A stretch of 58,913 nt of DNA, counting the filler, from Rhizaria sp. SCN 62-66 (Eukaryota): assembly GCA_001724265.1 (NCBI GenBank). It is 5 parts of 5 records of this genome, joined end to end, with 100 filler letters (N's around TTAATTAATTAA, not from the genome) between each part and the next. Parts side by side here need not be neighbours in the genome. Positions count along the whole stretch, not along the records: positions 1 to 11,933 come from MEDY01000540.1; 4 more parts are not named here. One strand, given 5' to 3'. Below are positions 1-39,275 of the stretch, piece by piece (positions within the stretch are counted from its first letter, which is position 1; every line of letters begins with the position of its first letter). The translations under genes and the position numbers were made by a program. The notes beneath the pieces were generated by a model. It worked only from the letters and a program-made list of their open reading frames with translations, made no database searches and was not told the origin of the DNA.

Positions 1-270
1 CCTTGCAGTTCGTTCTCTGACTGCGTTGAGAAAGCGAAATGAGTGAAGGAATCGCAAATACAATGGTGTCGCTTGGTGTTGTGAATGTCTGTCAAGTGAC
101 TGGCAGTGTGGAGATGCGAGTTCGATGAAACGGGGGAGGAATGGGCTGTGTTGCAAAGAAATATCAACACGTACCTGCAAACAGGCCTCACAGATGCGCG
201 CGGGACGCTTTCCTGGAAGGGCGCGGATAACCTTACCGCATAGCGCACAGCTGGATACTGCGCTCGCCAT
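1..270 (-). CDS. 5' part of a gene encoding an N-terminal CxxC...CxxC zinc-ribbon-like peptide (runs off the window start)
   Basis: Exon 270-175 reads MASAVSSCALCGKVIRALPGKRPARICEACLQ. A GTACGT...CAG intron spans 174-21, and the next exon continues SENELQ in frame. Confidence 0.55.
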   Translation of the reverse strand, partial: MASAVSSCALCGKVIRALPGKRPARICEACLQVRVDISLQHSPFLPRFIELASPHCQSLDRHSQHQATPLYLRFLHSFRFLNAVRERTAR

Positions 271-596
271 GCAGGACCTGCAGACGTTGATGTACAGTTG
301 AAAAAGTGATTTACGCAAACGGGATGAGGCGATTCATTGGATGCAAGAGTTGACGTAGAATAACCGACTGTTATTGGAAATCGACGGGAAATTTAGACTT
401 ATTTTGAGTATTGATGTTCATTATGACCAGTCTTGAGTCTATAGATATTAACTAGAGGCTGTACAAATCGACTTTGTGAAGGTCCGACGTGGCCCAGCCG
501 CCGACTCCCCAGTCATGTTGAAGAAGTGCCGGCAAGGCAGCAGCTGGACCGATAAAATAGCTGCCACTGAAGACGAGATGTGACCATACCAATACA

Positions 597-631
597 CTTG
601 TTCCAGTTTCGCCATAAGGGTATCTTTATTA
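597..631 (+). repeat. 3' end of the 5' LTR, followed by a PBS-like GGATATGAGC (632-641)
   Basis: cttgttccagtttcgccataagggtatctttatta matches 5337-5371 at 30/35 positions. The next bases resemble the GGTTATGAGC half-tRNAiMet primer site of copia elements. Confidence 0.7.
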
Positions 632-642
632 GGATATGAGCA

Positions 643-3600
643 TTGTACGGGACAGCATATCAGGGAATATGCTCATTTTACAAAAGATGCACTCACACCA
701 GCAAGGACCAACATTTCAGGAGGAGGGAGAAGGTCGAGACGTTGCTCCGTGACAACTTTGCGAGTAACCTCTACCTCGAGATCGGCCGGACAGCGCGCCG
801 CAACAACCGCGACGTCCGCGGCAATCTGGAGCCGCACCAATTCTGGACGGCAATATACGACCACGACCGCGTGCAAATGCGGCAGCACTCTAACAACGCA
901 CAAGCCCTGCTCGACGCATACAAGGCCGACGGCACGAAGTCGCTATACGCGCACACCAGCGGGCTTGTCGGTCTCGCACACACGTGCAAGATGACCGACG
1001 TCGTGCGCCTCATGAAGACCTACTACTATTCGTTCAACCGCGAGGTCCAGGTCGCTATGGTAGCCACTTACGGCCCACTGCGCAAGACCTACTGCCTCAC
1101 CAGCGACACGTACAGCTCCTACAACAACAAAATCGAGTTCCTCCGCGCGTCTATGCTCGCGAAACTAAAGAGCTCCCAGGATGAGCTCGACGAGTGACAG
1201 AACGACAGCAACAACTGCAACAACGACAACAACAGCGAGAGCGACGATGACGCCACCGATTCTGACCGCGACCGTAACAACGAAGACAACGCCGAGAGCG
1301 CGGAGCCGGGTGTCAGCAACACCGACTCACAGCACAACTGCACCATTCCCTCAATCCTGGGCATCCCCGATGAGGACGACTTCAAGTACTGCCCTGACTA
1401 CCGCCACCTTGAGACGTCAGTCGCGCTCACGACTGCAGGCATCGCCCAGCTCCACGAGGCCGCAGCGATGTGGCTAGACGGGCTCGGAGAGAACGTCGTC
1501 CCCGCAGTCGCAACGCCTGCAGCAAGGACCATCAGGGCGAACGTCGCACACAGCGAGCAGCAACGGCAAAGCGATAACTACGCGTCGAGCAACAACAACA
1601 GCATCAACGCCGACAGCAATGCCAACAACAACAGCGGCAACTCGGCACGCGGCAACGGCTGGGGCGGGTCTACGTGCGGCGGTTTGGGCCGCGGCGGCAA
1701 CAGGCCGCCATGTGGTCCCGTCATCTGCTTCCTCAGTAAGCAGGAGGGCCATCGCGTCTCAAGCTGCCCCGAGCTGGCAGTGCGTAACAAGGTCTGGGAG
1801 GAGCACCTGGCCAAACAGGTCCACGCCAAGTCAGCGCAAGCCCACGTGACCCACAACTAGAGCAGCAGCGACACGCGCTTCCTCCTCGACTCCTGCGCGT
1901 CACAGCACCACGTACCGCCGCGCGCTGAGAAGCACATGTACAATGTGCGCGCGACCGAGTAGTGCGTCGCCACCGTGGGCGGCACAGTCACCGCCACCGC
2001 TCAAAGACGTCGCCGTTCTCACCACGCTGCCAGACAACGAGGTCCTGCTCTTAGTCCGCCAACTACACAAGAGTGGCGTGCAAGCGGTCGTGAGCAACAG
2101 CGAGTCGTACATCGAGGTAAAGCGCGGCGACAACAGTGGCGTGCGCGCCGAGTGCGTCGACTTCGAGGGCATCGTCACTGTCCCTGGCTGCGAATTCAAG
2201 GGGCAGACCCAGCACGCCCTCGCCGTCACAGCCGCAACGGTCACGAGCAAGGCGTAGAACAACAACGCGGAGAAGAAAACCGATATGAACAACAATAAGA
2301 ACGAAGAGTCCCGCGAGAAAGTACGCAATGATAGCTTAATCCACACTCGCCTATGCCATGCACCACTGTCACGGATCAATGAAGCCACCCGTAGCAAGCG
2401 CCTCTGTCAAGGCGACTGCGACGCCAAGGTGGTACCGCGCTGCGAAGGTTGCCAATTCGGCAAACTTCGCGGTGAGTCGTTTCATCTCTCATCTTCTCCT
2501 CCCGCCTCCGCTCCTCCCGCTCTGATCCACACCGACGTTATAGGCCCCTTCGTTCCCGCAGCGCGCGGTCACCGCTTCGCAGTAATCTTTGCCGACGACG
2601 CGACCAAGATGAAGACGCTCTACACTATGAGCCGCAAGTCCCACGTCAAGCGCTGCTTCGCCTAGTTTGTCGCCAAAGCTGAGCGTCTTCACGGCTGCCA
2701 AGTCAAGATGGTTCGCCATGACCCAGGAGGTGAGTACACCGGCCGCTTCAGCCGTTTCTGCACTGAGCTCGGTATCCGGCAGCAGATCACCTGTGTTCAT
2801 ACACCGCAGCAGAACGGAGAGGCCGAGCGCTTCAACGGCACGCTCGTCAACCAGGTCCGCGCCCTGTGCCACGGTCAGGGCGTGCCCGACTTCCTCTGGC
2901 CCGAGATGATGCAGGCGACTGTGCGCGTGTACAACATGCTCCATGGGCCTGACACCGCGCAGTCCGAGGACAAGAGCTGTTGGGAGCTGTGGTACCAAGT
3001 CAAGCCTTCGTTGACTCCATTCCGGGTCTACGGCTGCGTCGCGAACGTGATGCGTAAATACAAGCGCAGTCACACCAAGCTCGAGTCCAAGTCGAACAAA
3101 GGCCTCCTGGTCGGCTCCGGCGATGACACCAAGGGCTGGCGCATTTGGGTTCCGGCCCGCAGCCACACAGTGTTTGTCACATCCAGCGCCGACGTCAAGT
3201 TTGACGAGAGCATCACGGGTGCGAAGCACGTTACGACCGTCGAGCGACTCAAGGAGATCCGCGGGCGACTGCAGAAGAAGGCTGACGACGTGAGTAAGCT
3301 GAACAAGAAGACGCAGGCGAGCGCGGCGAAGCGGGCGCAGAAGAGCAAACCGCCAAAGGAGCCGGTCCGGATTGCGCTTGACGTCGCCCCTCGTGATCGC
3401 GGGCACAAGCGCAAGCACGACGGCGGTGGTGACGACGATCAGCGCGAGAGCGACGAGGAGCAGGTGCAGGTTCAGGAGGTCAACAACAACAGCGACGACG
3501 GCGGCGATGACGACGGCGACGATGACAGCGGCAAGAGCGACCACGCCACCGATTCTGACGACGACAGTGACAACGATGACAACGAAGACGACATCGAGAA

Positions 3601-5351
3601 GAAGGTCGAGCGCGTCGAGAACGGGGTCGACAACCTAGCTGAGGCTATGGAAGTCGCAACGGTGGGCAAGATTGACAAGAGTACGTTAGCATCAGCGATC
3701 AAAAATGTGCTCATTAACGCTGGGAACACCAAGCATGACATGAGTAACAACAACCAGGTCTCTGACACCGTACCCATCGATGAGCGCGACGCTGTCCAAC
3801 CGCAGGAACCCCCCCGCGCAGGCCTTCGCCCGCGCGACGCACGGAAGCAACCTGACCACATTGTGTACGTAGCTCACAACAACACTAAGTCGCCCAAGTC
3901 TCTCTCCCATGCTGTTTTCTCTGCCGTCATCCAATCTCCCCAAGTCCTCGGCATTAGTCGTAAGCATGCCAATTGTGCCCAAAACGCAGTCCCAAGCACG
4001 CCGACACCATGACGCGCAACGGTGGGGCGATGTTGAGTGAACTGAGCTGAAGCAGTTTGCTGACTTTGACACGTACGAGCTCGCGTCTCGCCCCACGCAT
4101 GCACCCGTCATTGACACGGCCTGGATGTATACGTACAAGAAGGACAACAAGGGCATGATTACTCGCTGCCGCGCACGCTGAGTTGCACCCGGGTTTCAGC
4201 AGATTGCCGGCGTCAACTACTACGACACATTCGCGCCCGTGCTGCGCAACGAGTCACTGTGCATCGTGATAATCCACGCGGCCCTGCGCGGCTGGGTGAT
4301 TGATCAGACCGATTTTACTCCGGTTTTTCTCAACGTTGACTTGGAAGAGGAAGTGTGCGTCGAGCAGCCCCAGGGTTATCACGACGGCACTGGCCGCGTT
4401 TGGCGGCTCAAGAAGGCCATGTACGGTCTCAAGCAAGCACCGCGCGCGTGGAACAAGACACTCAACGCGCTCCTCGGCATCATCGGCTTTACACCCACAC
4501 TCAAGGACCCCTGTGTGGAGTGCGCCGCGACAGTAACGGCACCGAGACAGCGACGCTGAGCTGTTTCGTCGACAATCTGGTGGTCGCCGCGGCGACGCAG
4601 GCCGCGGTGGACGCGATCAAGACTCAACTCGCGGCCCGCTTCAAGACTTCCAACGGCGGCAGGCTCAACTTGCTCCTTGGCCGCCGCTTCGAGCAGCACA
4701 ACGGCGTCTGAACCATGTCGTTTGAGCCTGTCATCGACGACCTGCTGGCTGAGTGGGACATACGTGACGTCAACACCGCGCCGTCGCCAATGCAGCCGAA
4801 GACGAAGCTGCCCGTCACCGCGGTGGTCGCGGCGCAGCAGCGCAGCTCACCTGGCGGCGATGCAACGGCGACCAACACCGACGCCCACCGCGACTACGAG
4901 TACGGCATCAGCTACAACAACGACAGCGACGACAGCGACGACAACTACAAGCGCCTCACTGCTCAGCGTGGTCATTTGGTCCGCTACAGTCGCAAAGACA
5001 TTGCGTTCGTAGTCAGTTATCTCCAGCGCTTCGTTAACTGCCACGGTCCAGACCATTAGACTGCCGCAAAGCGCGATGTGCGCTACCTCAAGGGCACCAA
5101 GCACTCCCAGCTCCACCTGGGCGGCCGCTTAAACGGGAATGAGACCATTACAGCACTTTCAGACGCGGATTGGGTGGGCGACGTCGCTGACAAGCGGTCG
5201 ACGTCAAGCGCTGTGGTGCTCTGCTGTGGCAGCCCATTCAGCTGGTTCACACGCAAGCAGACTCTCAGAGTCCACCACTGAAGCTAAGTTCGTCGCGGCA
5301 GCTGAGGCGACCAAGGACGCACTCTGGGCGCAACAGCTTGTTCCAGTTTAG
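643..5351 (+). pseudogene. Disrupted copia gag-pol polyprotein
   Basis: In-frame stops TGA 1195, TAG 1858, 1960, 2255, 2663, TGA ~4179, ~4709 and TAG 5057, with frame changes near 2000, 4010-4050, 4510-4560, 4950 and 5265. RNase H is truncated at ~5337. Confidence 0.88.
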
Positions 5352-5371
5352 CTCTAAAGGTTTCTTTATTA
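5337..5371 (+). repeat. Remnant (last 35 bp) of the 3' LTR
   Basis: cttgttccagtttagctctaaaggtttctttatta is a direct repeat of 597-631, fused directly to RNase H coding sequence. Confidence 0.7.
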
Positions 5372-5573
5372 TGCTCTGATGCAGCCGGCGGGTTCCCATG
5401 ATGACGACTATAGTACTGTAATCCATAAGACTGAAAAACCTCTAAATGGGATAAGTCATGCGAATGTTACTGTAACATCTTGGCTGCCGAATAAATTTCC
5501 GAACAAGTTGTTTGTAAGAAATCACAGGTTACGCGAACAGTACTTGTGTTTAAATTTAAGAAGATGCAGATAA

Positions 5574-8333
5574 TCACCATGGCCAGGCGGTGTAAAACTC
5601 CCGAAACGTAGTGTTAAAATCAGAGCTGCAATTCTTTGCGTGACAACATGCCTCAAAGCATTTCAAGACATTATCATCGAAGAGCTTTTTTTTGTCCCGT
5701 TTGCCGATATGCTTCGGCTCTTCCTCGTCCTCCTCGCTGAAATCCGGCTCATCATCGTCCTTCTTGCACGCCGTAACGCGGCCGATGGGCACGGCGCCGC
5801 CTAGCAGACTCGCCGGACACGGCTTGTAGACGATGAACCACGGCGTGCACGAGGGCCTGACGGGGATGACTGAGGGGGGGTAGAATAGCACAGTGCCGAC
5901 AGGGTATGTCGTCAGCTCGCTGGATTCGCCGTAGACAATGTTGTTCTTGGGAAGTTGCAAAGGCACAGAAGCACGTGAAAGCGCCGAGCTCTCTGAGTAG
6001 AGTGTAATGAACGGCAGCGGCGCCGCCGCATGATGCGCGGGGGGCGCAAAGCACGTATGCAGCTTGCTGCCAATGACCGAGTCAATTGCTGAAATGCGAA
6101 AGTGCAAAACACTGCAAGGAGACAGATGCTCATGCGTCTCAATCATAATCCAGTACTCATCAGCCTCGTTAAGACGCAGTGCCATAATAAGGTCATTACG
6201 CCTGAACTGGGCAGTCAACCTCATCTTGGCGCTCACAAGAAGACTCTCGTTTGCCATTTTCTGCATCATCGCTAGAGTAACAGCTGACGGTTCGTTGGTC
6301 GCTTTAGTACCCTGCGTCCGCGCAGCGGCTGACGGCGCGCCTGTCGTCTTGGTCCCCCGTTTCGGCGCCACAACAGGCGGGTACTCGATGGATGATGATG
6401 CGGCGGCGTGGCGGCCGGACTTGACTCGCTGCGGGTAGCCGCTCTTCTCCAGGACGCGGGCAATGTGCGCGTCAAATGTCTTTTGCCAGTCTTTCTGCAG
6501 AGATGGTGCGTCAGACGACTTTGTTGTGGCTGTGCCAGGCGGGATTATGACCATACCCACAAGCAGCGTGTGCATCTGCGTAAGCTCCTGCAGCACTTCG
6601 CGACCTCCAGCAATGCTTGAGCAGTCACTATCGCGCAGCATCTCCAGCAATCGCACTCCGTGGTTTTGAACAAACTGTGTTACGAAAGAGTTCCGCGGCT
6701 CATCCTTGCTGTCAAGCGCTGCAAAGTCAGGTGAAGTGTCACGGGTTCTCATGATTACGCGCAGCACGCGCAGAAGAAGCGCGATAGGTAGAATACTCGG
6801 ATGGGATGTCTTTTGTAATCGCTCCCACCTTGCCACAACATAAGGTCGCAATAATGTGCAGCAAAGCGGCACAACGTTACTCTCTAGCAGCTGCTGCGCT
6901 GTGAGCATCACATCAGAGGCAGCGTTCAAAGTTCGATCTAACACAGTGGCAGTATTACAGAGCATTTCCCAATAATATTTAGAGTTGCAGTCGCTAAACT
7001 CGTCCTCAATTACAGACAGAATTTTCCCAAAACATGTTACAAAGGATATTCGCTGCGCAAACGTCGGGAATCGGGTTGCCAATTGCGCAGAAAGTTTCAT
7101 AAACATCGACATCTGACCGATCGAAGACGATGCCATCGTATCAAACTCAACAATAATGTCCTCAATACGCTGTTTTGTAAACATGCGTGTAAAGATTGCG
7201 TCGTCAAACAAAGGTAGATATTCGCACAAAGGTCGAAGATGTGTCGCGACGGACAGATCCGACAGCAGGGGCTCAAAATCCTCACTAGCCACAAAGTCCG
7301 CAAAGTCACGTCGGCATTGTTCGTCTATTGGGACGTTGCTATTTCCGCTATTGTTGTCGGATTGATCACTGTCGCCGCTGCCGTTGCCACAATCGTCGCC
7401 GCAGCTCTTGTCCTGGTCGTCGGTGTTGCTGTCGTCGTCATCATCGCTGTCACTGGCATCGTTGTTGAGACCAAATATGTCGAAATCATCATCACTGTCG
7501 ACATCGTTGCTGTCCGCGATGTAGCCGAATTTGTACACGCTGCGCAATGCGTCATATATAGCGACGTATTTGTATGATGATCGACGAGACTCACTGGGAA
7601 GTACATGACGTCGAATCACACTGCGCAGCAACGGGACAACGGTCGAGACGTTCGCGTACAAAATGCGGGGCGCATCAGAAGTGTAGATCATTTTTTTACT
7701 TGGAGAAAGAATATACCCGATCAATCCACCCAGAGAGAAGTAATAGTCGTCCTCTTCTTTGTTCTGTTCTTCCGTCTTCGACTGCTGCTAAGACTGGCGT
7801 TCTCGCTGCTCTTTAGCGCAAATATGCGCCTGCACTTGCGCCAGCACAGCAAGCCTGGTGGGCGTGGGGATGGTCGAATTGACTGAAAGAGAGTTTGCAA
7901 CATCGATCAGAGCAGTCAGCTCGCGGTCGGTCTGGAGATGGGGCATAACAGCGATCAGGCTCTCGAACGCACCGGAGTAACGAAGAAACTCTCGACCACC
8001 GTCGTGCCAGATCATAGCTTTAAACAGGGCCACAATAGTCAGAACTCGGGCAGTAGCCGCGCTGTTGTCTGTGCTACTTGAGTTGTTGTGAAGCACGAGG
8101 GACTGTAGAAGCAACGGAACGATCCCGCTCTCGCAGAGCACTGCTAAGTGCGACTCGTCACAATAGGCCTCTTTGAGCTCGGTGAGTGCGGCCAGGTCCG
8201 TGTCCAGAGCTGCAATGTGACCGATCGCAGTGTGAACTTGGAGAACAGCGCGATCCCTCCGCGTCATCCTTGGCTTGAGGCTCTGACTGCTCTTGTTACT
8301 GCTGCTGGAGTTCGTGTGACGTGATGAGCTCAT
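5574..8333 (-). CDS. ARM/HEAT-like helical protein (~919 codons) interrupted by one in-frame TAG at 7790-7788; possible cyclophilin-like C-terminal domain
   Basis: ORFs 8333-7788 and 7724-5574 are in the same frame and separated only by TAG (ERQS*QQSKTEEQNKEEDD). ARM-like segments include LCESGIVPLLLQSL and LLESNVVPLCCTLL. The gene ends in TGA. Confidence 0.55.
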
Positions 8334-8848
8334 CGTGCAGCTGGTTTCGTCAAACTCGTGCTGAAAAGAAGATTTCGTCGCGACTGCGTTTTGTTAACCA
8401 GTAAAAGGTTATTTTTCGCACACGCGACAAATTCTACGACTTTTGTTTCGCGTGTCTTTGTGTGCTGAATATTCGCGAAATCATAGGAGGTGACGAGATA
8501 AGATATTTTGGCGATGACGACATAACGAAAAAGGCGCATTTCATCGTGATATTCCGGTTTATCGACAAAATAAATTTGGTAATCACAGCTTCACAATCTA
8601 TTAAAGTGCGGATGACGCATTGAAACGTCTGATGGCTTAAAAAACGCATATATCTCATCATGGCAATTCGCCAAACAAGCTCAGCAAGACAACAAAAACT
8701 GCACCAGCCGACAGAGGACCATAGCTGAGAGTTAGAGCCAACATTCCCACCTCTTGTTGTGCTCTAAAGCCTCGCTCCAATCGAGGTATGTTACCGTCGA
8801 CATTCTGCATAAAATTCCAGCTGACAGCTTTTGCCGGTCGCGATTTAA

Positions 8849-9024
8849 AGGTGGCGTTTCTCGTGTATAACACTTCGTTTTCCTGTGAACACAGACTCTC
8901 TTTTTCTATGAAAACAATAAGAACCAAGTATATAATTCGAATTATATGTATGTAAATGATATCATAAATTGTTTTCTCTGTGTTTATACAAAACAGAAGT
9001 CTGTGTACACAAGAAACGCCACCT
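8849..9024. mobile_element. Tourist/PIF-Harbinger-like MITE (176 bp)
   Basis: TIRs are AGGTGGCGTTTCTcGTGTA and TACACaAGAAACGCCACCT, with TAA on both sides (8846-8848, 9025-9027). Imperfect inverted similarity extends ~60 bp inward and there is a central 18-bp perfect palindrome at 8930-8947. Confidence 0.72.
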
Positions 9025-9154
9025 TAATATGGCCGCGGGGAATTGATGTTTGGTGGTGTTTACCCCAGTGTGAGCCTGTGAGACTTGATGTTTTATGCAG
9101 AATGTCGGTTGTGACAAGGTACAACGTCTCGGGCAATACAATACAGCTTGAACG

Positions 9155-10645
9155 ATGACGATCTTGTTTAACTATGCCTCGTTTTACTCGGTGCTCGCAG
9201 ACTTGACGTCACTCGGAACATCACTTACCGGGATTCAACAGTTAAGGAGGCTCTACGCACGAGACGATGATATGGTAGCAGCCTGCCTGGAGCACGGCGT
9301 ATTTGACTGGCTTGTGCGCTCGCTGAAGTACTCAGCTGATGTTGAAGAGCTTGAGCGCACAAACGAAACTCTTTATTTCTTCGCGAACCTGACCTCCTCT
9401 GGCGCCTGCAAGGTCTTGCTGGAATGCGGCGTCACCGAGCAGTTTTGCGCCCTGTTCCACCTCGACCTGCCGGACGAGACCTTCGAGATCCTGCTCGTGG
9501 TTCTGAGTCGCATCGTCCGCACCGGCCGCGAGGCTGTCTTCTCGCTTGTCGACCGCGGCGTGTTCGCCCATTTCTGCCGCTGCACGGCAAAGGTTTACGC
9601 ACGCTTCGACACCGTGAAGCCCAGCGTGTTAGAGCTCCTCGGTGGCACAATGTGCAGCTTCCTTTCCGTGTACCCGCCGCTGCCATTCCGCGTCGCGAGG
9701 GCGGCGATTCCGCCGCTCTTTTTTGCGCTGCGCCACTTCACGTCGATCGCAACTCTCGCTGAAGTGGTACAAGAGACGCTCGAAACGCTGCCCTACGTCT
9801 TCCGCGAAAACAGCGAGGGTGTGAGCTTGGATTCTCTCCTTGCCAGCGACGACGTCAGCGATGACGTCGACAAGGACGCAGGCAATGACGCTGGAGCGGG
9901 CGCTGACGAGGGCATTCGTCGTGATGGCACTAGTGATAGTTCCAACATCTTTGCGCTCGTGCTCACGCAGCTGCATGCGGGGCCGCGGAGGCGCGCCCCC
10001 GCGCTGCGCCTGCTCAACTGTGTCTCCGCGCTCGCCGGCGACGCACCCGCGCGCGTCTTCACGCCGCCCGCGCTGGTGCACCTGCAGCGGCTCGCCGAGG
10101 CACTGGGGCCGGATGAGGCGAGCGGACTCCACGATCTGCTAGTGACGCTGTCGCCCATGCTGGCTTGTGGCCCCGCGATGGTGTCGCGCGTGCTCGCGGC
10201 CGACGTGCTGCAGACGGTCATCCGCCGCGTGCGGGCGCCGCAGCGCGACAACGGCGTTGCATCGAACGCATGGGGCGTCGCGCGAGACTTGGTCTGTGTG
10301 ATACTCAGCTTGCTACGAAAAGTGGCTGCTAGGAATGGCGATCTTGAGGCTGTGCCACGGACGCTTCTCGACGCGGGCGCACTGCGCTATTCCGCGCAGG
10401 CACTGTCTGCTGCAACTGGGCTGTCTGAGCCGCCCCCTTTTAAACTGCTCAACCTGATATTCGAGGCCGTGTCGCTCTTTGTGAGGTTCGGGGACACTGC
10501 GGCGAGTCCCGCACTGGTGGCCGAAGGCGCCGCGCCGCGCAACGCGTTCCTGGCGGCGTTCCTCGCGGCGGGCGGCGGCAGCGCGCTGGCGATGTTGATG
10601 CAGAATGAGCAGGTGTGCGCTGCTGCGGTGGACGAGGCCGCGTAG
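9155..10645 (+). CDS. Divergent ARM-repeat (importin-alpha-like fold) protein; may extend to TGA 10733-10735 if TAG is read through
   Basis: 496-aa intronless ORF with repeated helical ARM-like motifs (CLEHGVFDWLV, LLECGVTEQF, LVDRGVFAHF, LLDAGAL). Confidence 0.6.
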   Translation: MTILFNYASFYSVLADLTSLGTSLTGIQQLRRLYARDDDMVAACLEHGVFDWLVRSLKYSADVEELERTNETLYFFANLTSSGACKVLLECGVTEQFCALFHLDLPDETFEILLVVLSRIVRTGREAVFSLVDRGVFAHFCRCTAKVYARFDTVKPSVLELLGGTMCSFLSVYPPLPFRVARAAIPPLFFALRHFTSIATLAEVVQETLETLPYVFRENSEGVSLDSLLASDDVSDDVDKDAGNDAGAGADEGIRRDGTSDSSNIFALVLTQLHAGPRRRAPALRLLNCVSALAGDAPARVFTPPALVHLQRLAEALGPDEASGLHDLLVTLSPMLACGPAMVSRVLAADVLQTVIRRVRAPQRDNGVASNAWGVARDLVCVILSLLRKVAARNGDLEAVPRTLLDAGALRYSAQALSAATGLSEPPPFKLLNLIFEAVSLFVRFGDTAASPALVAEGAAPRNAFLAAFLAAGGGSALAMLMQNEQVCAAAVDEAA

Positions 10646-11933
10646 CTGCACGGACTTGTGCTAGGCATTGTGGGCGCTAGCTCCGATGACTATGTGCCGC
10701 AATAGGCAGATCCTGGCGACGACGCAGCACGTTGATCACAAACAAATCAATCCAATAGTCCCAGGTACATCGTCGTCAAATATTATTTATTTCTCGTTTT
10801 GGCCGTTCGAAAGAACTGGTGGAATAAAACGGCAAGTTTGTCTCAACCATGATACGCATTTTACTAAGAAGTCGTAGTATGCCGTCGCACATCGCACTGT
10901 ACATCTTGTATAATAAGCTTAAGCTTACAATGTAACGCACGAACAAAACGGGCGCACACCATTAATATCTTTGCGCTCAACGTCTGTTTAATATCTTCCT
11001 GCAACAACATTGCATTGTACAGTATTAGTTAAGCGACATCGAAATACATATTTTATATAACTTGAATAAAACATTATTTTAAAGATGTTGAAGACACGTT
11101 TATCAAAGTCAACATGTTTGTTGCAAGAATTCGCTGATCTGGTACTACAAAAATTCGAGATCAAGACTCGTACAAATACAATCTCAATTGTCAAGCACAG
11201 GTACCTAATAAGATATTTCCCTGAGATCTAAACTGAAACACGTGTATTGGTGTGGTTTTCTCGTAATCTGCTGCAGCCAGGCTAACTTATCAGTCCTGTT
11301 GTTGCCTTGTCAGACACTTCTTCAACATATGAAGGAGGTGCAGGGATTAGCGGCACTACAAATGATCTGCTGCTCTAACCGCACAAAAACAAGCATATTT
11401 TGATGACCAACCAACACACAGAACAGCAACCCAAAAACAACCGCATGATAACGGTATTATCCATTATCACGCGTGCAAATGATCAAGCGGATTCGATCGT
11501 AAAATTATAATTTTATCGTTCATTCATCATGTAGATTGTCATTAGCTTGTATCGAACATCTACACAACGCCCCGTTTATCCACATGGAGCCCCTTAATGA
11601 AATTTTAACGGCTTTTTGTGTTGCCCATAGCTTTTTTCGTTCAAATATGTATGGTATTGAACGGTTATAGGTACAAAAATAGTTCAAAATGCTGAAATAT
11701 ATTAACCTAATCATTGTTAACAACGAACCATTTCTATAATTGCCTTTAGTGCGGTATGTCACTCACTTCAACTCAATGTACTCGCTTCGTCTCTTGGCCC
11801 TCACAGTAAGAACATGTCCTTTCACGCCCCGAATGCGAACACAAGCTCTATCACGCCCCTGCCTGCCGGTTTCCATGGCTTTGGTCACCGCCAGCACAAT
11901 CGCCGCCACCTGCACCGCGAGCGCCCCTTCGGT

Positions 11934-12033: not shown

Positions 12034-12259
12034 TCGTGTTTGTGCGCAAATGGTTAGCAATCTCACATTGTAGTTGCGCACTCTTCGACACCACCTGCCC
12101 CGTCCCTTCCGTTGGGGTTCTCAAAATATCAAGTTTGGCCGGATGCAGGAGGCCAAACAAGGGCGAAGAGAGATTTTCTGAGAATCTTTGAAGTGCCTTT
12201 GTTTGAACAGGTTTGCTGCTTTGTCGCGCAAAACCTTCAACCTCCGCGTCGGAAAGTAG

Positions 12260-15200
12260 ATGTCTCTTTATTTTTCCGGCAATAAGCCCGTTTCTGCGCT
12301 GCAGCGCGCGCTTCAACGCTCCGCCCTCGCGAACGCGTTTAAACTGCCCGCATGCCCTCTTTCCCAGCAGCCCTCGCGCTCTGTCTCCGCCTCGGCCCTC
12401 GCTCTCGACCCTGCAGCGGCCTCCCAGCACCTTTCTGCCGCCCTCCTGCGCCGTCTTTCCGCGCTTCATAAGGCGTCCTCCGCTCCGTTCGCGGCCGGCT
12501 CTGGCTCTGGCTTCGTCGCTCCTGCAACCACGTCGTTCTCCGCTCACACCAGCTCGAACAGCTCCCAGTCCTCTACTGCCGAGCCCACCGCGAAGCCCTG
12601 GTGGCAGTCCCGCTGGATGCACCTTGCGCTGCAAGTTGCCACGGGCGCCCTCACCATCGCCGCGTTCACCGAACTCACTGGCGCCAAGTCCAATGTTCTG
12701 CTCGAGGCCCAGGCCTGTGGTATTGTCGCCTTCACCTCCAAGGACACCGCCGCGGTCGACTTCCTCCTCGAGGGTCTCACCATCCTCCAGAACCGCGGCT
12801 ACGACAGCGCCGGCGTCGCCACCGTCGCCCCCGCCGCCCCCAAGGACCCCAACAACCCCGACGCTGCTCCCGCGACTGGTGGCTCTATCGTGATCACCAA
12901 GCACGCCTCGTCCGTCTCCTCGACCTCTGACTCGATCGAGCTGCTCAAGGCCAACGCGCCCGCGCGCCACGTGGGCCACACGTGCGGCATTGCGCACACG
13001 CGCTGGGCCACCCACGGCGGCCGCACTGACGCCAACGCGCACCCGTTCATCGACTACAAGCACCGCCTCGCGCTCGTCCACAACGGCACTATCGAGAACT
13101 GCGGCGAGCTCCGCGCCGAGCTGCTCGCCAAGGGCGTTACGTTCACCTCGCAAACCGACTCCGAGGTCATCGTCAACCTTATCTCGGTGCTGCTCGACAC
13201 GGGTCTCACGGTCGAGGGCGCCGTCAAGGCCGCGCTCGCCCGCCTCGAAGGCACTTGGGGGCTCGTCGTCATTCACAAGGACGCGCCGCAGCAGCTCATC
13301 GCCGCCCGCAACGGCTCCCCTCTCGTCGTCGGCATCTCCGACCAGGGCATGTTCGTCGCCAGCGAAGTCACGGCCTTCATGCGCCACACCAGCCAGTTCA
13401 TCCCCCTCGCCGACGGCGAGCTCTGCACGGTGGGTCCCGACGCGACCTCTCTGTCGCTCTCCCGCGTCCAGCAGGCCCATACGGAGGTTATCGAGTCCTC
13501 GCCGGCGCCGTACCCGCACTGGACCATCAAGGAGATCTTTGAGCAGCCCGCCGCGCTGCTCCGTACCATCGGCTTCGGCTCGCGCGTCACACAGGTACGT
13601 CGACATTTACTGTTGGCTTTTGTCGGAATGAGTCCATTTTGACTCGAAACTTTAACAAAATCCGAGTTTGTTTTTCCTTTTTCAAACGAACGCTCTCGCA
13701 TCTTACTCAACGACTCCATTTCTCATCTTGTCGGCTCTTTCACACGTTTTTTTCCGCATCGCTCGCCATAGGACGGTTTCGTGAAGCTGGGCGGTCTCGA
13801 GCGGTCTCTTGACTCGCTTCTGCATGTCCAGGACCTCCTCATCGCCGCCTGCGGCACGTCGCTCTTCGCCGCTTCCTACGGCGCCAAGATTATGCGTTCC
13901 CTGGGCTCCTTCGCCACGGTCCAGCTCGAGGACGCCGCCGAAGTCGTGCCGGACTCGCTGCCCACCGCGCGCAAGCACAGCAACGGCTCCCGCACCGGCG
14001 GCATCTGCGTCGTGTCGCAGTCTGGCGAAACCAAGGACACTCACCGCGCACTCGTGCTCGGCATGGAGAATGATCTGCCGGCCTTTTCCGTCGTCAACCA
14101 GGTCGGCTCGCTCATTGCGCGCACCACGGGGTGCGGTGTGTACCTCAATGCGGGTCGTGAGCACGCCGTCGCCTCCACCAAGGCCTTCTCCACACAGGTA
14201 CGCTTCTTTCTTCACATATTTATCTCGCAATGTCATGTTTGTGCTATAAATTTAATGTTTTATGTGTATATTTTAATGTTATTTATGATTTTTGATCTTT
14301 TTGTGTTTATCTTGTCGCTGTATTTGTCTCACTGATTGTTGTACTCCTGTTGTCACAAAACTGTCTTTTTTCGGTCCTCTGCAGGTGACTGCGATGGCGA
14401 TGATTGCGGTGTGGTTCTCCCAAGCGCGCGCTCTGCAGGAGGCACAGCAACTGGCCCGCTACAAGGCCAAGGCCCACGCGTCTGCCACCGCGCACAACAA
14501 CAACTGCAGCAGCAACACGAGTCACACGAGCCATGCCAATGCGCCTAGCTCACCGCCCGCCGCCAACGCCGCCGCGGGGCGCGCGCGCCCGACCTCTGCC
14601 TCCGCTGGCGGCCGCAACAACAGCGCGAATCATGCCCACAACAACAACAGTGGTGACAACGACGACGACGGCTGCGAAATCGCGACCATCGTGCCCACGG
14701 CCAAGCAGCGCGAGCTCGTGGCGTCGCTGCACTCGTTGTCGTTCCACTTCACCACGGCGCTCAAGACGCACGAGCAGATGAAGACGCTGGCGCAAAAGCT
14801 CACCGGCGCCAAGTCGATGTTCCTCCTCGGTAAGGGCTTCGGCGAGGTACGTATTGCTCTTCAAGCTGCAACGTCAAACAAAAATCAAATAGCATAGATC
14901 AAACTGAATTCATACCATAACATGTGTTTAACTAGCTAGTATTTTTTTATAAGTTTTATTCTCACAAGAGTCGATATATGTCTTCAAACTCCTGTTTTTA
15001 TTCAATCGTATTATAGGCTATTGCGAAGGAGAGCGCGCTCAAGATCAAGGAGATCACCTACATCCACGCCGAGGGCTTCTCCGGCGGCGCCCTCAAGCAC
15101 GGTCCCTTTGCCCTGCTCGATGAGGGTACTCCTGTTGTGCTTTTTGCGTTCAACGACTGCCACTTCGAACTCATGCGCGTCGCTGCGCAGGAAGTCAAGG

Positions 15201-15412
15201 CGCGCGGCACGTTCAACATCGTCGTGACTGACCGTCCTGACGCGTTCGGCAAGGATACCGCGGACGAGATCGTGGTCGTGCCCAGCAATGGCATGCTCAC
15301 CGCGCTCACGGCTGTTGTGCCGATGCAGCTGCTGGCGTATGAGGTCGCCGTGGCCAAGGGGATTAATCCTGATAAGCCCAAGAACCTCGCCAAGGCCGTC
15401 ACTGTCGACTAA
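12260..15412 (+). CDS. GFAT: Glutamine--fructose-6-phosphate aminotransferase (isomerizing) with a 152-aa N-terminal extension
   Basis: Exons 12260-13594, 13772-14197, 14385-14846, 15017-15412, all with GTACG..AG introns. Motifs CGIV, NRGYDSAG, AHTRWATHG, VHNG, SQSGETKD, VASTKAF, ALKHGP and PKNLAKAVTVD. Ends TAA. Confidence 0.96.
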
Positions 15413-17059
15413 GTGGAGTGTACTTGTCGTGCTGTGTGTTGTTATAACGCTTGTCGTCATGCTATAACACCAGGAACGCATGGGTCGATGGCCCGGAACC
15501 TCGACGCGGCGAAGGCATTGCCATCACTCACTGACTAGTGACTGTGAGCAGTTAAGCTGTGCGTGTCTACGGTGTGAGTTCCTACTTGTGTGTGTGTGTG
15601 TGTCTCTCACTCTTTTTTTTGTTTTCTGCTTGTCTTTTCTCTATCAGTTACGCTTTTCTTTGTGACCTCTTTGTTTCTTGTGCTATAAGTGGATGCGCGT
15701 GTGTGTTGGCTTGTGTCGAATGATCTTTTCATCGTCGTCAACCAAACATAATTGCCATCACGTCATTAATAGCAATCACAAAAATCCCACCACTGCAAGT
15801 TTCTGTTCTCCTCTCTTTTTTTTCGTTGAGCTAACAACCAGCATCACCATCATGAACACTACTCAGTAAGGTCTGCAAAACATGTGTATAGTGGCTTTAG
15901 AATGTTGCCCTTGCTATGAAAGCAGCAGCAACACTTTGGAATCAGTTATTACTACGGCAGATATTACTCCGTGTATTCACATTGCTGAAGTCACGTTTGT
16001 TGGTATTGATACCAGCTTGTACGTGTAAGTATCTTCTTAGACTGTATCGCAGTGTCTACGTTGCTTGTGTATAGAAGCGACTGCCCACACAACAATCTAA
16101 GCATTTAGAGGTCTAAGTACCTCTCACTTTAAGTACTTACGCGTCAACAGCTTAATATTGTCTCTGTTCAATTGTCGCAACTGTCAACACAATGGTAGCA
16201 GTGAAACGCATTGCTTTGCTCTTGGGTGATTGTTCTCGGTTATCTCTTTCTGCTAGTACTTCTCTTCTTTTTCGTTTCTTGGTTTCGTGGAGAATATTCC
16301 CAATAAGGCAACGGTTTGTTGTTCTTATGCTCAAACACACGATATTTGTGTGTATTAGCCCAAATACATCATCTCAACTTGATCCATCGTCCTGATTGTT
16401 CTCACAGCCACGAATTCGCGCTCACACGCATAGCCATTTGAACTTGCAATATCCGTGATTTATAACCACAATATGTGCCAAACTGTGATTAAATAATGCA
16501 TATCATGACTAAATGCATACTTCAAATTGCGTGTCATTTCCAGGGCGATCGATAAAATGATCGCCCAAAGTGAGAGTTGCAAAAGTAGAATTGTGAATTT
16601 GGTAGAAGTGGGCAGATATCGACCAAAGTAAAAAATTTAGAGAAAAAAGCAATAGATTCAAATATATTAAACCTTAATTAATCGGAATAAGTTTTATTTA
16701 TATCATCATCAACGACTAAAATCACGAATATATACGTTAATTCATCACAAATACAAGATAAACAAATGCAAGGCTTCATACCAAGGTGCCTCCACAAGAT
16801 CGAACCCGTACAAAGCAAGATATCCCATCATACGACAATACAACTTGTGCCACATAGATTTTTGGGGCATCTCGATCATTATTCTATTTATACCCCCCTA
16901 TTTTACTATCTGCTATATCGTGTCCATACTGCTGCTACGCAGGTTCAACAAGAGTGAAATCCACTTTCACACATTTATCAACCCAAAGGCACCACGATCT
17001 AACCTCAAGGAGACGATCATGCGATCTAGAGTACATGTACGAGTAGTATGTTCGTTGAC

Positions 17060-18518
17060 TTACTCATTCTTCTCAAGAACTTGAATAATCTTCGCAAGCA
17101 GTGGCGAAATCTCGCCGCCCTCAGCCTTGGCCTTGGCCACAACATCCTCCACTTCCTGCACCTTTTGCTGGTAAAACTCGCGCTCCTTGTTAACGTTCAC
17201 AGACACTTCTTCAAGTTCTTGAATACGAGCCTTCATCTCGGCGAGCTTCGCCGCGCTCACCGTCGCCCCCGCGCCCGCGCGGGCAGCGGCGGCAGCAGTG
17301 GCGGCGTTATCAGCCGCGGCGAGAGCATAGGGAGTGTAGCCAGTCCGGTTCGGCGACACAGAGGCCTTTGCACCAGCACCAGGGGCACCAGTTCCAGTCC
17401 CAGTCGCGGTCGCGGCGGCACCAGCGGCGGGGCGGCGGGCGCCGGCGCCAGTGCCAGTGGCAGAGGTCGAGGACTTGGGCTTCGCTGCAGGCGAGCTGCC
17501 GACAGCAGCCGCCGAGCCAGAGCCAGCACCGGCCTCTGTGTGAGCGGCCGAAGAAGAAGTAACCGGGGCAGCGCTGCGGACGGTGGGAGCGGCGTTGGCG
17601 TTCTTGCACTTGGAGCGGCGCTCGATGGGGTCGTACGCAGCGCCAGCGCAGTTGGCGTTGTGGAAGGAGTACATCCACTGGAGGAACTCGATGTTGTCCT
17701 AACGTGGCATGATATGCATTCAATACGACAAATAATAGAGAATTAAGATAAGAAAAGTTATATAATAGAGTTTCGCCACTATGCGCAAAAATATATGTTT
17801 TGCGAAGATAATTGTAAGGCGTGGTATGCTATAATGTGAGAATAAACGAACCTGGTACTTGCAGCGCACGAGCTGTGCCACCGGCACAGCCTTAGGTGTG
17901 ACGTTATGCTGTGCAGCAACCTTGTCAATGGCCTGCTGAAGCAGCTTAAAGTTCTCCACGCTCTCGTACTCGTGTTTGGCGCCGAAGTTAACCTTGGACA
18001 TAGGGATCGAAGGAGTGGGATAGTAGATCTTGTCGAAGATCTGGCAGTAAAGAGCGCCTGTGCCACAGTCTTCGATCTTGGCGTAGTTAAGCTGGAACGT
18101 CGAGTTCACCCAGTCGAGCAACGCTTTGCGGCCGACGAAGTAGTTGTCTGCACAGCAGTGAGTAACGCAGAGGGTAGTGGGAGAAAATGCAGGGGAGATA
18201 TGTGAAGGCGGAATGAGACAGCGACAACGAACGATTGCATGTGGGGGGAGCAAAGATGAGGACAGAGAAGGGAGGCGATTGTTTGAGAAAACAAAAGTAA
18301 CATATTTCCACAGAACGCAAGCCCACTCATCAACAAACCCAACTCTTGTTTCTAGCAGCAGTTGGTTTGCACCTACACAGATGCATGGAAAGGAGGCCAG
18401 TGGATGGTTGCGCTCGCCCCAAACCCAAGAGCAAAAACGATGAGGGGCAAGGGGAAGAAGAGTACACATGCGCATGAAACGTACTGTTAAGGATGCCAAT
18501 AGACATGTTGGCAGCCAT
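17060..18518 (-). CDS. EB1: Microtubule end-binding protein EB1 (CH domain + EBH)
   Basis: Exons 18518-18485, 18147-17852, 17698-17060. Motifs YFVGRKALLDW, GALYCQIFD, ENFKLLQ, KYQDNIEFLQW and KEREFYQQKVQEVE. Ends TAA. Confidence 0.94.
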
Positions 18519-18995
18519 GGTGATCGCGGTGTCTGCACAGAGTGAAAGCAACGAGGGCAGCGCGGGATGGAGGCGAGAGAGGCGGCATGGGTGAGAGAGC
18601 AGAACGACTCCGAATAAAAGAGTGCACTGGAGCCGAAAATTGATATCCAGGCATAATTTATCAAGAAAATAAGGAAAATAACGCAGCATTAAATAAATAT
18701 CCAGCGCGAGTTTGCATAAGAACGGACGATGGAACGCGTGATTTCTTCAGCAATCTGCAGGATTTGCAAGCCAGTCGCATCTGCTTGGTTGGCTGTTTCA
18801 AACGCCACCAACGGCTCTATTTGCTAATCACAAAACCGATTGCCGTTCTTCATGGACACACCGCCAATGCACTGCTGAGTATGATAGCGCATGTTTTTCG
18901 TCTGTTTTCATCTATCAATTTTAATACTTTCTTGATTCTCCCTTATCTTCTTTGTCGTTTTGCGCCTTCTCGTGTTCGTCTTCAGACAGTTGAGT

Positions 18996-21900: not shown

Positions 21901-22260
21901 ATCCCGTCAGCGGCCGCGGTCACAGCGCGCTACGGTGCTGAGACGCCTCTGGGGCTCTCTGCCCACGGTCACTCGACTGCCCACGGTCACTCGAACCAGA
22001 GGAACCAGTCGTCGATGCCGGGGGGCGTGATTCCTGTCTGGGGCGGCGTCCCCTCGCACATGGCAGGCGGCTTAGCTTCGAACAGCAACAACAACAACAA
22101 CAATAACAACAACAATACCAATGGTGGTTATGGTGATAATGGCGGCAACCCTGCGACTGTGTTGCACGGCCGGCGGAGTGGCACGCCCACTGGCGGCTAC
22201 ACTTCCGGCGGGGGTGGCTTAACTTCAGAGAGCAGCTACGCCCCGATTGCGTACAATAAT

Positions 22261-22293
<33 letters not shown>

Positions 22294-22803
22294 AACAACA
22301 ACAACAACAACAACATTGGCAACATGGGCCACAACAATAACAATGTGAACTCTCAGTCCGCGATGTACCAGCAGCAGTTCCAGCAGTTCAAGATGCAACA
22401 GCAGCAGCAACAACAGCAGCAGCAATCTCAGCAGTATGCGCATCAGCAGCAGCAGCAGGGGCAGAACAGGCCGGGTGTAAGTATCCCCGGTGGCGACGTA
22501 AGTAGTCGGTTCACGAGCGACGTCGGCGCCGCACACCGCCGCGGCTCTGATATCTTCGGCTCACAGTCGGTCGGCCACAACTCGTTCACGCCTGTTCCCA
22601 ACAACAACTACAACAACGGATATAACAATAGCAGCAACAACAACAATGGCGGTTTCAACTCCAATATGAACAATAACAACAGCAACAACAATAACAACAA
22701 CAACAACAACAACAACAACGCGCTCAATGCAGAGGCGGCGGCCAACGCACGCGCGTCGTCACTCGATTACGCGCGGCGCCAGCGCTCTTCGAACATCTTC
22801 TGA
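18996..22803 (+). CDS. Protein with N-terminal leucine-rich repeats and a very long N/Q/S/G-rich low-complexity tail
   Basis: Exons 18996-19171 and 19365-22803. LRRs include LDLHNQNL, IDISGN, LQTLNLDEN and LKYVCLAHC. Poly-N and poly-Q tracts follow. Ends TGA. Confidence 0.8.
22255..22314 (+). repeat. (AAC/AAT)n microsatellite encoding poly-Asn
   Basis: About 20 consecutive Asn codons; similar tracts at ~22087-22116 and ~22684-22719. Confidence 0.9.
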
Positions 22804-24822: not shown

Positions 24823-25346
24823 TGAGTGGAGTCTGAGACGTGGCAAGGGACCAGGTACGAGCAACGGCTGTTACTGGCTCTGTGAACGGGTCTCTAAACA
24901 GGGAGAGTTGAAAATATTGAAAAGAGTTAGGGAAACACGAGTTAAAATATATTATAAATTGATATCGTTTGATATGGATTTCGCTGTCTATGGCCCATTT
25001 AACGATAAGACTGTGGATATCTATATGGTGACGATAACCAGCCACAGAGCCGTTCGGTGACCTGCCGCTCGCCCGGTCGCAGAAGCCGACTGGCAGGTGC
25101 CGAAAAGAAGTATCCTGACTGACAAAATCGCTGTTATGATGTATAATATTAACACCGTGTATTAAGAGGTGGAGTTGTATATCACACTCTTTTGTGCAGA
25201 TCGCCTGACGACGGTATAGCCTCGCTCCAGACGCCTTTACATGGGTCGTCGCTTGCCCCTTCAAACACCTCCCTTCGCTTCCGTCCCAGCTCACCCAGCT
25301 CTCCCCTCTACATGTCTCCGATTACTACCTTTACAGACGGGTAACC

Positions 25347-28963: not shown

Positions 28964-30432
28964 TCACTTGGTAACCGCAAACAGACTATGCAGCACCTTC
29001 TCCTGCTCCGCATCTACTTTCCCCTTGACGCTCGCCGCCTCAGCCGCAACAGCCTGGTAGTCCATCAGGATCTTCGCCCAGTCCCAGTAGCTGAACTCGG
29101 GCCAGAGCGTGTCCGTGAAGGCCAAGTGTGTGCCTCCGCTTTGCCATAGCAGGAAGTCGCTCAACCGCGTCTCGCCGGAGGTGCGGATCAACAGGTCCGG
29201 CTCGGGCAGCCCCGCAGTGTAGAGCGAGGACTCGAGGTAGCGCATCGCGGCGACGACTGAGGCGGGGGACTCAGTACGGGACGAGGACTCAGTATGTGGG
29301 GACTTTGACTGTGACTGTGATTCTGACTGCGACTGCGGCTGCATCTGCATCTGTGGCTGTGTGAGTGACTGCGACTGCAATGACCGTGATCGCAACTGCG
29401 AGTCAGAGTCAGGACAGGATTTAGACTCGGACTCATAGTCAGCTTTAGCACAAGAGCTAGAGCTCGAGTCACAGCCAGAGTCGCTGTTCGAGTCTGCGCC
29501 CGTGCTGCTGCTGACGTTGGTGTCGTTCTTGCTTGTGTACAGGGTGGGGGATGAGAAAAGTGTGCGCGTCAACGAGTGCGCAATTTCCATGTGACTGCCG
29601 TAGGAAAAACAGATGTTCAGCAGCAGGCGAGTGTTACCGGCGGTGCTTTCCATGGCTTCAACAGCTGCGGTCTGTACATCCACCGGCAAACGGCCCAGGT
29701 CCCCGATGACAGCGACGCGCGCGCCGACAGCATGAAGCGTGCTAATGTTAGAAACCATGTCGGAAAACTTGGCCGTGGCGAGCGCCATTAGACCGCGGAC
29801 TTCGGATGGGGAGCGGTGGAAGTTGTCGACGCTGAAGGCGTACACAGTGATGATCTAAATAACGCGAGAATAGACAATGTTAGTTGTACATTTAAGATTA
29901 AAGATATGAAATTCGAGTGTAAAACAACGTCATAGGCATTTAACCACGTGGGCTTATCATTAGTGGGCGTAATTGCAAAGATAAATCGATGATTTAGTGA
30001 TGGATGCTGAAGGGGGGCCTTACCTTGACGCCGACGTCTGCGCAATAGTCCATGACGTTTAGCAGTGAGTCATAGCCTTGTTCGTGACCAGACATCACCA
30101 CACGGTTAGCGCGCCGGGCAAACCGGCGGTTACCATCCATCACAAACGCGACTGAGGTAATATGAAGCAGGACAGCACGGGAATAGAGATGTGAGCGAAA
30201 GTATACAAAAAGCAACACAGAGAGCCAACATAGCGAGATATATAAGCAAGGCTTATATGCCTTATTTAAAACAAAGAACCCTACCGCGACCGTGCATATT
30301 CACCCAGGTATATGCCGATGGTCGCGATATATAGCAGTAATTGTGGATGTGCGTACCGTGGTGAGGAATGGGACCGCATCGCAATGCGTGGCCAAGAAGC
30401 TTGTGGTACCACCGAATCCGCGTGCCAGACAT
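28964..30432 (-). CDS. DHDDS: cis-prenyltransferase (dehydrodolichyl diphosphate synthase-like)
   Basis: Exons 30432-30357, 30151-30024, 29854-28964. Motifs GPIPHHVAFVMDGNRRFA, TVYAFSVDNFHR, PDLLIRTSGETRLSDFLLWQ and LWPEF. Ends TGA. Confidence 0.92.
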
Positions 30433-32738: not shown

Positions 32739-34632
<1,894 letters not shown>

Positions 34633-39272: not shown

Positions 39273-39275
39273 TTA

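Follow-up and report, generated by a model that had tools for sequence, protein, structure and literature searches.

The window analysed here is a stretch of 58,913 nucleotides from Rhizaria sp. SCN 62-66 (assembly GCA_001724265.1), made up of five contigs joined by runs of N (positions 1-11933, 12034-23778, 23879-35595, 35696-47321 and 47422-58913). On the minus strand of its first contig, at 5574..8333, lies a gene of 919 codons with a single in-frame TAG at codon 182 (7788..7790), which is a true strain variant of CAG. The event at this codon is shown to be one C>T transition, from CAG to TAG, in a poorly conserved, Gln-rich linker; on the reading favoured here, the allele does not exemplify a new genetic code. 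As for its persistence, the chances seem about even that the variant is tolerated because termination at UAG is leaky in this lineage, a reading that draws on the distribution of TAGs among paralogous genes. The gene belongs to an undescribed family of more than 100 members, in which a predicted cyclophilin-like C-terminal domain is combined with armadillo-like or B-box N-termini. Taken alone, the TAG of the window is a commonplace one-base strain difference in a non-essential gene, and it is the pattern in the paralogs that is unusual.

The frame opens at the ATG 8333..8331, runs through 181 codons to the TAG (7790..7788) and continues through 737 open codons up to the TGA at 5576..5574, with no further stop and no frame change in the rest of the 919 codons. 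An open stretch of this length behind a stop, in DNA of 52% GC, is not due to chance. The original prediction had described a lone TAG in an otherwise intact frame of about 919 codons, separating two minus-strand open reading frames (ORFs) of 181 and 716 aa that share one frame in a Gln-rich context, and both points are borne out by the sequence, where the codons around the site read CGC CAG TCT TAG CAG CAG TCG (R Q S stop Q Q S). The upstream ORF (181 codons, 7791..8333, minus strand) encodes a helical, armadillo-like N-terminal region with the motif ESGIVPLLLQSL, as seen in the alignments of relatives, and the second ORF counts 716 aa from its first TTG and 705 aa from its first ATG. The linker that contains the TAG joins the armadillo-like region to the remainder of the protein, which ends in the cyclophilin-like domain. 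Within the family alignment the TAG column is poorly conserved (occupancy 0.22), and close relatives have Gln, Pro or a stop at this site.

The allelic nature of the TAG was established with Logan contigs of four sequencing runs, among them X1, X3, X4 and the RNA run X5, mapped onto window positions 5000-10900. Contigs with at least half of the sampled words of the stretch 5400-8600 occur in four runs from three studies, which carry bioreactor and wastewater metagenome labels. The X1 contig over 7659-8120 and the X3 contig over 7659-8055, from DNA runs of two different studies, show 0 differences from the window and contain the TAG, the gene being covered at about 35-50x in X1. TAG is the sole form found in the runs of two studies dated 2015 to 2017. 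In X4, a run of another study dated 2025, the contig over 7659-8134 has two differences only, namely 7790 A>G on the plus strand, which turns TAG into CAG, and 7821 A>C (Ile171 to Met). A CAG>TAG allele, proposed earlier as an alternative, is thereby shown directly by the run contigs. Sequencing or assembly error as the source of the TAG was ruled out, X1 and X3 each having yielded a contig that carries it. A poly-A RNA run with the label activated sludge, X5, contains part of the stretch 5400-8600; its contigs cover 5515-5954, 6225-6438 and 7859-8120 and leave 7788-7858 outside. This run belongs to the same study as the CAG-bearing X4, and an RNA library can contain DNA, so that it is not informative on the TAG allele.

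Comparison with relatives indicates that the two ORFs are one gene. Seven relatives (P0005, P0006, P0008, P0061, P0076, P0078 and P0067) span the TAG site in one chain, and the 77%-identical ortholog P0114, encoded on contigs of up to 76 kb, aligns over it with no gap, its residues there being RERQS-P-QQ. It is hardly credible that two separate adjacent genes share a frame by chance: gene calling did record two products, but these eight relatives unite both parts in one chain over the TAG site, and the next ATG follows the TAG at a distance of only 96 nt. The recorded products are the 181-aa form, from 3 assembled contigs, and the 705-aa form, from 6, the N-terminal entries being P0115 (181 aa) and P0007 (159 aa). 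Another very improbable reading, raised in the original prediction, places the TAG at the 3' end of a 48-nt in-frame intron (7835..7788, minus strand) that would be spliced out of the mRNA. Although this candidate begins with GT, ends with AG and has a length that is a multiple of three, its 16 codons encode VQAHICAKEQRERQS up to the stop and align with coding sequence of relatives, in the family segment LAHLxxxMxxxxxQ, with 15 of 16 residues identical in P0114. It has a GC content of 54% and no CTAAC branch point, unlike the one clear intron found, that of the cis-prenyltransferase gene, and a joint at its ends was found in none of the four mapped runs, the RNA contigs of which lie outside 7788-7858; the intron was rejected on these grounds. 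The cis-prenyltransferase intron, on contig 3 (about 30023..29856, minus strand, about 168 nt, low GC), is clearly spliceosomal, with AAG before GTAAGG at its start, a CTAAC branch site, a pyrimidine tract and the 3' end TTATTTAG. Its final TAG is in frame with the downstream exon and so mimics an in-frame TAG.

The pattern among paralogs was obtained by scanning the family alignment (9 sequences) against contigs of the Joint Genome Institute (JGI) metagenome collection, which gave 28 loci from one metagenome (80.4 kb). A tblastn search with 110 family proteins returns many in-frame stops within strong alignments, mostly TAG. Lesions were counted with a hidden Markov model (HMM) built from the 9-sequence alignment only, the loci being excluded, and inside the HMM matches they comprise 18 TAG, 4 TAA, 6 TGA and 5 frame changes. 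TAG is the lesion in all ten loci that have a single one, none of which has a TAA, a TGA or a frameshift, and 11 of the 19 lesion-bearing loci are TAG-only (label shuffle p=0.004). The B-box-type N-terminal regions, which lie outside the HMM cover, hold extra TAGs and no other lesion (4 in L012, 3 in L009 and 1 in L006). In L007 the B-box-like match starts just past a TAG at codon 8, and the sole upstream ATG precedes that TAG. Altogether, 16 family frames are open under TAG readthrough, with 19 TAGs in 8,444 codons. The TAGs of the family stand at non-homologous positions, share no common context and are mostly outside Gln-rich surroundings. Products from other assemblies (P0017, P0023, P0030 and P0039) begin or end at family TAGs with 99-100% identity; being bounded by the same TAGs, they show the TAG alleles to be stable across samples.

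Three other sources of such TAGs were considered and rejected. Mutation of repeats from C to T, in the manner of repeat-induced point mutation (RIP), which the confinement of the TAGs to one family had suggested, does not agree with the observation that about half of the differences between TAG and its neighbour codons are transversions (AAG, TTG, TCG), nor with the rarity of TAA despite 125 CAA codons, nor with dN/dS values (the ratio of non-synonymous to synonymous substitution rates) below 1. If adenosine-to-inosine (A-to-I) editing turned UAG into UGG, TGG should face the TAGs in relatives, which is the case for one TAG at most, in a gapped alignment. Lastly, a general mutational process that makes TAG is contradicted by the out-of-frame sequence, where TAG does not exceed TAA in frequency and falls far below TGA.

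From conservation, dN/dS and branch tests, the TAG-bearing paralogs appear to be under purifying selection. Within a 98-sequence alignment, 20 TAG sites (19 in the loci plus that of the window) were compared with 1,293 one-step-neighbour codons, and the median conservation is 0.08 at the TAG sites against 0.20 for the control codons of the same genes (one-sided Mann-Whitney p=6.6e-4). A score of 0.3 or more is found at 2 of the 20 TAG sites and at 32% of the controls. The TAG sites hence avoid conserved columns, which is not expected of random nonsense hits in dead genes. Pairwise dN/dS between TAG-bearing paralogs is 0.43-0.62, with the exception of the L009-L010 pair (0.92). On the branch of L012, taking L005 as outgroup, 28 synonymous and 19 non-synonymous single-step changes are found, compared with a neutral non-synonymous share of 0.74 (binomial p=1.2e-6). 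The four TAGs of L012 are lineage-specific, L007 having GAT, CAG and CTG at three of them, and the TAG-containing stretch of L012 (codons 1-310) has a ratio of non-synonymous to synonymous differences per site (pN/pS) of 0.28 against L007. For the frameshifted L018, the ratio of non-synonymous to synonymous changes is 2.7, neutral, as for a dead gene.

Outside the family, in-frame TAG is absent from the genes sampled. As the original prediction had held, the long frames of contigs 2-5 rich in G and C at third codon positions (GC3) contain none, in about 9,600 codons. When TAG is read through, these frames are extended upstream by no more than 3 to 51 codons, and one such gain is the 3' end of the prenyltransferase intron. 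The related loci have 0 in 4,896 non-family codons, where 11 would be expected at the family rate (P=1.6e-5), and two contigs that carry family and non-family genes together have 5 in 1,099 family codons and 0 in 2,610 others (p=0.002). A neutral synonymous codon would have reached the non-family genes, which means that selection acts against TAG outside the family. UAG is therefore not a general sense codon of this organism, within the sample available.

Gene ends and tRNAs bear on the same question. It had been claimed that no confidently mapped gene end in the window uses TAG, which is contradicted by the divergently oriented neighbour of the 919-codon gene. This gene, at 9155..10645 on the plus strand (496 codons, GC3 0.75), is a distant relative of the family and ends in TAG at 10643-10645, which is followed by 19 codons, a second TAG at 10703-10705, 9 codons and a TGA at 10733-10735. 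The long-frame ends of the window, leaving aside the 919-codon gene, are TAA in 6 cases, TGA in 6-7 and TAG in 1. About 1 in 20 of the gene ends outside the family is a TAG, and that one is the end of the same neighbour gene; such scarcity (at most 1 of about 20) has p=0.046 against a normal share of 0.22. In the family loci, the first stop past the C-terminal match is TGA in 15, TAA in 6 and TAG in 5 of the 26 loci with a stop. The only tRNA of the window found with Rfam is a tRNA-Gln(CUG) at 39275-39348 on the minus strand, a near-cognate species that might read UAG by first-position mispairing, and the 28 related loci contain no tRNA.

The suggestion that UAG is decoded as an amino acid has consequently come through in part only. 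As genome-wide reassignment it is not supported, given that other genes have no TAG and that the neighbour gene ends in one; the idea of decoding as such is kept alive by the lone TAGs of the paralogs, which are far commoner than under a pseudogene model, and by purifying selection. True reassignment, in which UAG would stand for Gln or some other amino acid, termination would be left to UAA and UGA, and the codon would be rare because the change is recent, is improbable. It would account for the restriction of in-frame stops in intact family genes to TAG, for the scarcity of TAG at gene ends and for purifying selection on genes with several TAGs, and it would make the CAG/TAG pair synonymous if UAG means Gln. 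Against it stand the zero counts outside the family and the contrast within shared contigs, together with the TAG at the end of the neighbour gene. Moreover, no TAG site falls in a column conserved for any one residue; the columns are too variable for any residue at UAG to be read from the alignments. In Rhizaria sp. exLh, by comparison, where UAG encodes Leu, 71 conserved genes together contain 384 in-frame UAG codons, most of them at positions where Leu is conserved (Panek et al. 2017, PMC5304391).

The mechanism that would reconcile these observations is leaky termination. In this protist lineage, ribosomes would pass the terminator UAG in a useful though incomplete fraction of cases, with the help of tRNA-Gln(CUG) or another near-cognate tRNA, or of a suppressor. 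An in-frame TAG would then lower the yield of full-length protein and insert a near-cognate or suppressor-borne residue, which would make it mildly harmful, that is, hypomorphic and not null. A family that is large, redundant and fast-evolving would retain such TAGs, at its tolerant positions only, and other genes would be purged of them. The allele of the window would still give some full-length protein, aided by the C at position +4 and the two CAG codons downstream. Programmed readthrough driven by a signal such as UAG-CAR-YYA does not fit the site: the downstream CAG CAG agrees with the CAR part of that motif and not with YYA, and the stop itself is not conserved, being CAG in X4 and Pro in P0114. 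A further possibility, put forward tentatively, is that this uncultured lineage of wastewater-type habitats has been caught midway in a stop-to-sense change, in which UAG terminates and is nonetheless decoded enough to persist under purifying selection, first at tolerant positions of this family, while essential genes still exclude it. If true, the lineage would illustrate in nature the ambiguous intermediate through which codons are reassigned.

The main competing explanation, which we regard as less likely than leaky termination, retains the standard code and sees in the window an ordinary loss-of-function allele. A recent CAG>TAG change would truncate a dispensable member of a birth-and-death family after 181 residues, giving a young pseudogene, and the TAG bias of the paralogs would result from mutation spectrum, codon usage and chance. 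The CAG of another population, the variability of the site (Q, P or stop) and the absence of in-frame TAG from other genes all fit this account. So does the presence of undoubted pseudogenes in the family, where TAA, TGA and frame changes are concentrated in 8 loci that are true pseudogenes. The nearest ortholog locus, L001, is itself a pseudogene: its invariant Trp616 is replaced by TGA, its frame changes once, and the codon that is AAG (Lys883) in the window is a TAG; its stops are located at 74-76 and 841-843. Products from other assemblies end at these same stops, P0004 at the TGA of Trp616 and P0118 and P0014 at the TAG, and the ortholog products of the sister lineage, on long contigs, are cut in pieces (P0114 of 276 aa, P0004 of 395 aa and P0118 of 507 aa). 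Contigs of 76 kb and 58.7 kb encode P0114, P0118, P0004 and P0014, and the cuts fall at query positions 252 and about 690.

Together with the pseudogenes, the following points weigh against leaky termination. The raw TAG excess is marginal (18 of 28 stops, p=0.05, for an expected TAG share among one-step nonsense changes of 0.46-0.48 from family codon usage), and reaches p=0.01 once three stops at match edges are dropped. TAG matches no single amino acid, the codons facing it in close paralogs being AAG at 3 sites, CAG or CAA at 3, TTG at 1, TCG at 2 and non-neighbour codons at about 5, and random nonsense hits would look alike. The evidence from the family comes from a related organism, whose ortholog L001 has 81% DNA identity with the window gene, and not from the window's own genome; the partition of lesions and several of the tests were devised after the pattern was seen. 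For the gene itself, the TAG allele is known here from DNA, and the differences listed between X4 and the window over the whole gene, 5 synonymous and 6 non-synonymous plus TAG/CAG, are too few to show constraint; compared with L001 over 279 codons, the window gene has a dN/dS of 0.62. Finally, a tRNA with a CUA anticodon is absent from the 139 kb examined. A null allele, on the other hand, leaves unexplained the ten of ten single-lesion loci with TAG, the avoidance of conserved columns and the purifying selection on the four-TAG L012, on its own branch and between its TAGs, and it has to accommodate TAG as the sole form in the runs of two studies over 2015 to 2017. It explains the window alone equally well, and not the pattern in the paralogs.

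Several known systems offer partial parallels to leaky termination of this kind. According to Panek et al. 2017 (PMC5304391), the genes of exLh end only in UAA or UGA, with UAG rarest in ribosomal protein genes, and Iotanema spirale has UAG for Gln, a stop-to-sense code confined to UAG. The resemblance lies in UAG being alone in frame, in the prevalence of UAA and UGA at gene ends and in a use that varies by gene class. The difference is that in those organisms UAG is frequent in conserved genes and stands at conserved Leu or Gln, whereas here the codon is found in no conserved gene of the sample, corresponds to no consistent residue and is limited to one fast-evolving family. In yeast, readthrough of a premature UAG that has Gln codons on both sides and C as the next base reaches a few percent, Gln being the residue inserted, and near-cognate tRNA-Gln acting on premature UAG or UAA yields about 2-7% of full-length product (preprint by Leslie et al. 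2026, PMC13192750). The allele of the window shares with the yeast case a premature stop in a Gln-rich stretch, the C at +4, adjacent Gln codons and the replacement of a Gln. It differs from the Gln-stop-Gln arrangement in yeast in reading Gln-Ser-stop-Gln-Gln, and the majority of family TAGs fall outside a Gln-rich context.

The proposal that one codon both terminates and is translated recalls the ambiguous codes as well. Those of Condylostoma, karyorelict ciliates and Blastocrithidia involve two or three stop codons, with in-frame stops abundant in all genes, which is not the situation proposed here. In Sordariomycete fungi, restorative A-to-I editing of mRNA converts premature UAG into UGG, and such TAGs match TGG in relatives. 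Lone premature stops, all of them TAG, in a subset of otherwise intact, fast-evolving genes are common to both cases, but the codons that face TAG in the present family are AAG, CAG, TTG and TCG. Fungi are not known to possess condensin II, and a condensin II subunit is encoded in this assembly. With an ordinary nonsense allele or young pseudogene, the window TAG has in common the one-base change from a sense codon, the variable site and the decayed orthologs, and what sets it apart is a paralog pattern that is TAG-only, position-selective and compatible with selection. Should the pattern be true in the full genome, it would represent a case in nature of partial decoding of a stop codon that has not been reassigned, a stage proposed by theory for code change and rarely observed. 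It would also alert annotators to the truncation at TAG of gene models from this lineage.

Regarding the family itself, an exhaustive homolog search returned 100 relatives at E<=1e-3, of which 33 at E<=1e-30, all from metagenome assemblies, while a word-indexed search returned the window's own 705-aa product only. Pfam gave no family at E<=0.01 for the 716-aa product and nothing for the neighbour gene, the ESM Atlas had no usable match (template-modelling score, TM, at most 0.25), and there was no family relative among 41 pattern matches in viral contigs. The conserved C-terminal domain (320 residues, 5577..6536, minus strand) is predicted by AlphaFold2 and Foldseek to have a cyclophilin-like fold. 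Over about 300 residues it shows the motifs AAHFR, LHTCF, LPFVTLY, YPVGTVL and PWFIVFKPC..LLRGAVPVGRV. AlphaFold2, run with a 39-sequence alignment, modelled it with a predicted local distance difference test score (pLDDT) of 80.1 and a predicted TM score (pTM) of 0.81, and Foldseek against the PDB placed cyclophilins at the top (E 5e-4 to 8e-3, TM by target 0.45-0.58). The domain may therefore be described as having a predicted fold of cyclophilin type, without a match to the Pfam cyclophilin profile.

The N-termini of the family differ: the window copy has armadillo-like helices, and members of the L007 group have a B-box-like finger together with a helical stretch rich in Ala. The B-box match of that group lies below the Pfam cut-off (22.3 vs 24.1 bits). 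The neighbour gene at 9155..10645 resembles the N-terminal and middle parts of the family, without the C-terminal domain (hhalign probability 90%, E 1.7e-6); this paralogy was not significant by BLASTP and needed a profile comparison. The size of the family, its fast turnover and its domain shuffling are those of a birth-and-death family. Fusions of TRIM5 and cyclophilin A in primates provide an architectural comparison: paralogs of the L007 type likewise join a B-box-like zinc finger, an Ala-rich helical or coiled stretch and a cyclophilin-like C-terminus, although no RING is seen in them, their B-box is below the cut-off and the likeness to cyclophilin is by fold only. The window copy has an armadillo-like N-terminus instead.

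Within the 919-codon gene, an Asp/Ser-rich low-complexity stretch at 7371..7502 (minus strand) presents an in-frame length variant, in which 130 nt are replaced by CCAT (net -126 nt), with one contig each in X1, X3 and X4. Its depth in these runs resembles that of the main form, indicating that two haplotypes or copies coexist. Over 9403-9757, in the neighbour gene, an X4 contig differs at 29 of 355 positions, far above the level of the TAG gene, and so represents a paralog or else an allele of much greater divergence. The space between the two divergent genes contains, at 8786..9125, nested inverted-repeat elements that resemble miniature inverted-repeat transposable elements (MITE-like), recognised by run-contig depth and sequence. 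Their depth in X1 is 10,238, against about 42 in the flanks (about 250 times), and they occur in the RNA run as well. A 65-nt copy of this repeat, with 95% identity, is located at the end of contig 2 (23683-23747) and links that contig to contig 1, whereas contigs 3-5 are without such a tie.

On the plus strand of contig 1, a 720-codon frame at 1850..4012 corresponds to a truncated Ty1/copia-type pol fragment with an integrase core and an SH3-like domain, and no reverse transcriptase follows the copia integrase frame. It is interrupted only by TAG, at 2255-2257 and at 2663-2665, the second within the integrase core match, and the gag-like frame at 556-1857 has a TGA at 1195-1197. The in-frame TAGs of retroelements, in 1850-4012 and on the minus strand of L003, were left unused as evidence, given that such copies decay anyway and that the gag frame has a TGA.

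The gene content of the window is eukaryotic and includes a condensin II subunit, AAA ATPases, PX and CH domains, a reprolysin, a cis-prenyltransferase and a copia-type integrase. At 32739-34632, on the minus strand, three consecutive frames with GC3 of 0.81-0.89 are separated by gaps of 112 and 135 nt; they are probably exons of one gene, and the TAG at which the middle frame seems to end most likely sits inside an intron. Two AAA-ATPase frames of the minus strand, 49983-51242 and 51001-54228, overlap by about 240 nt in different frames and probably belong to a single AAA gene of two domains that contains an intron or changes frame.

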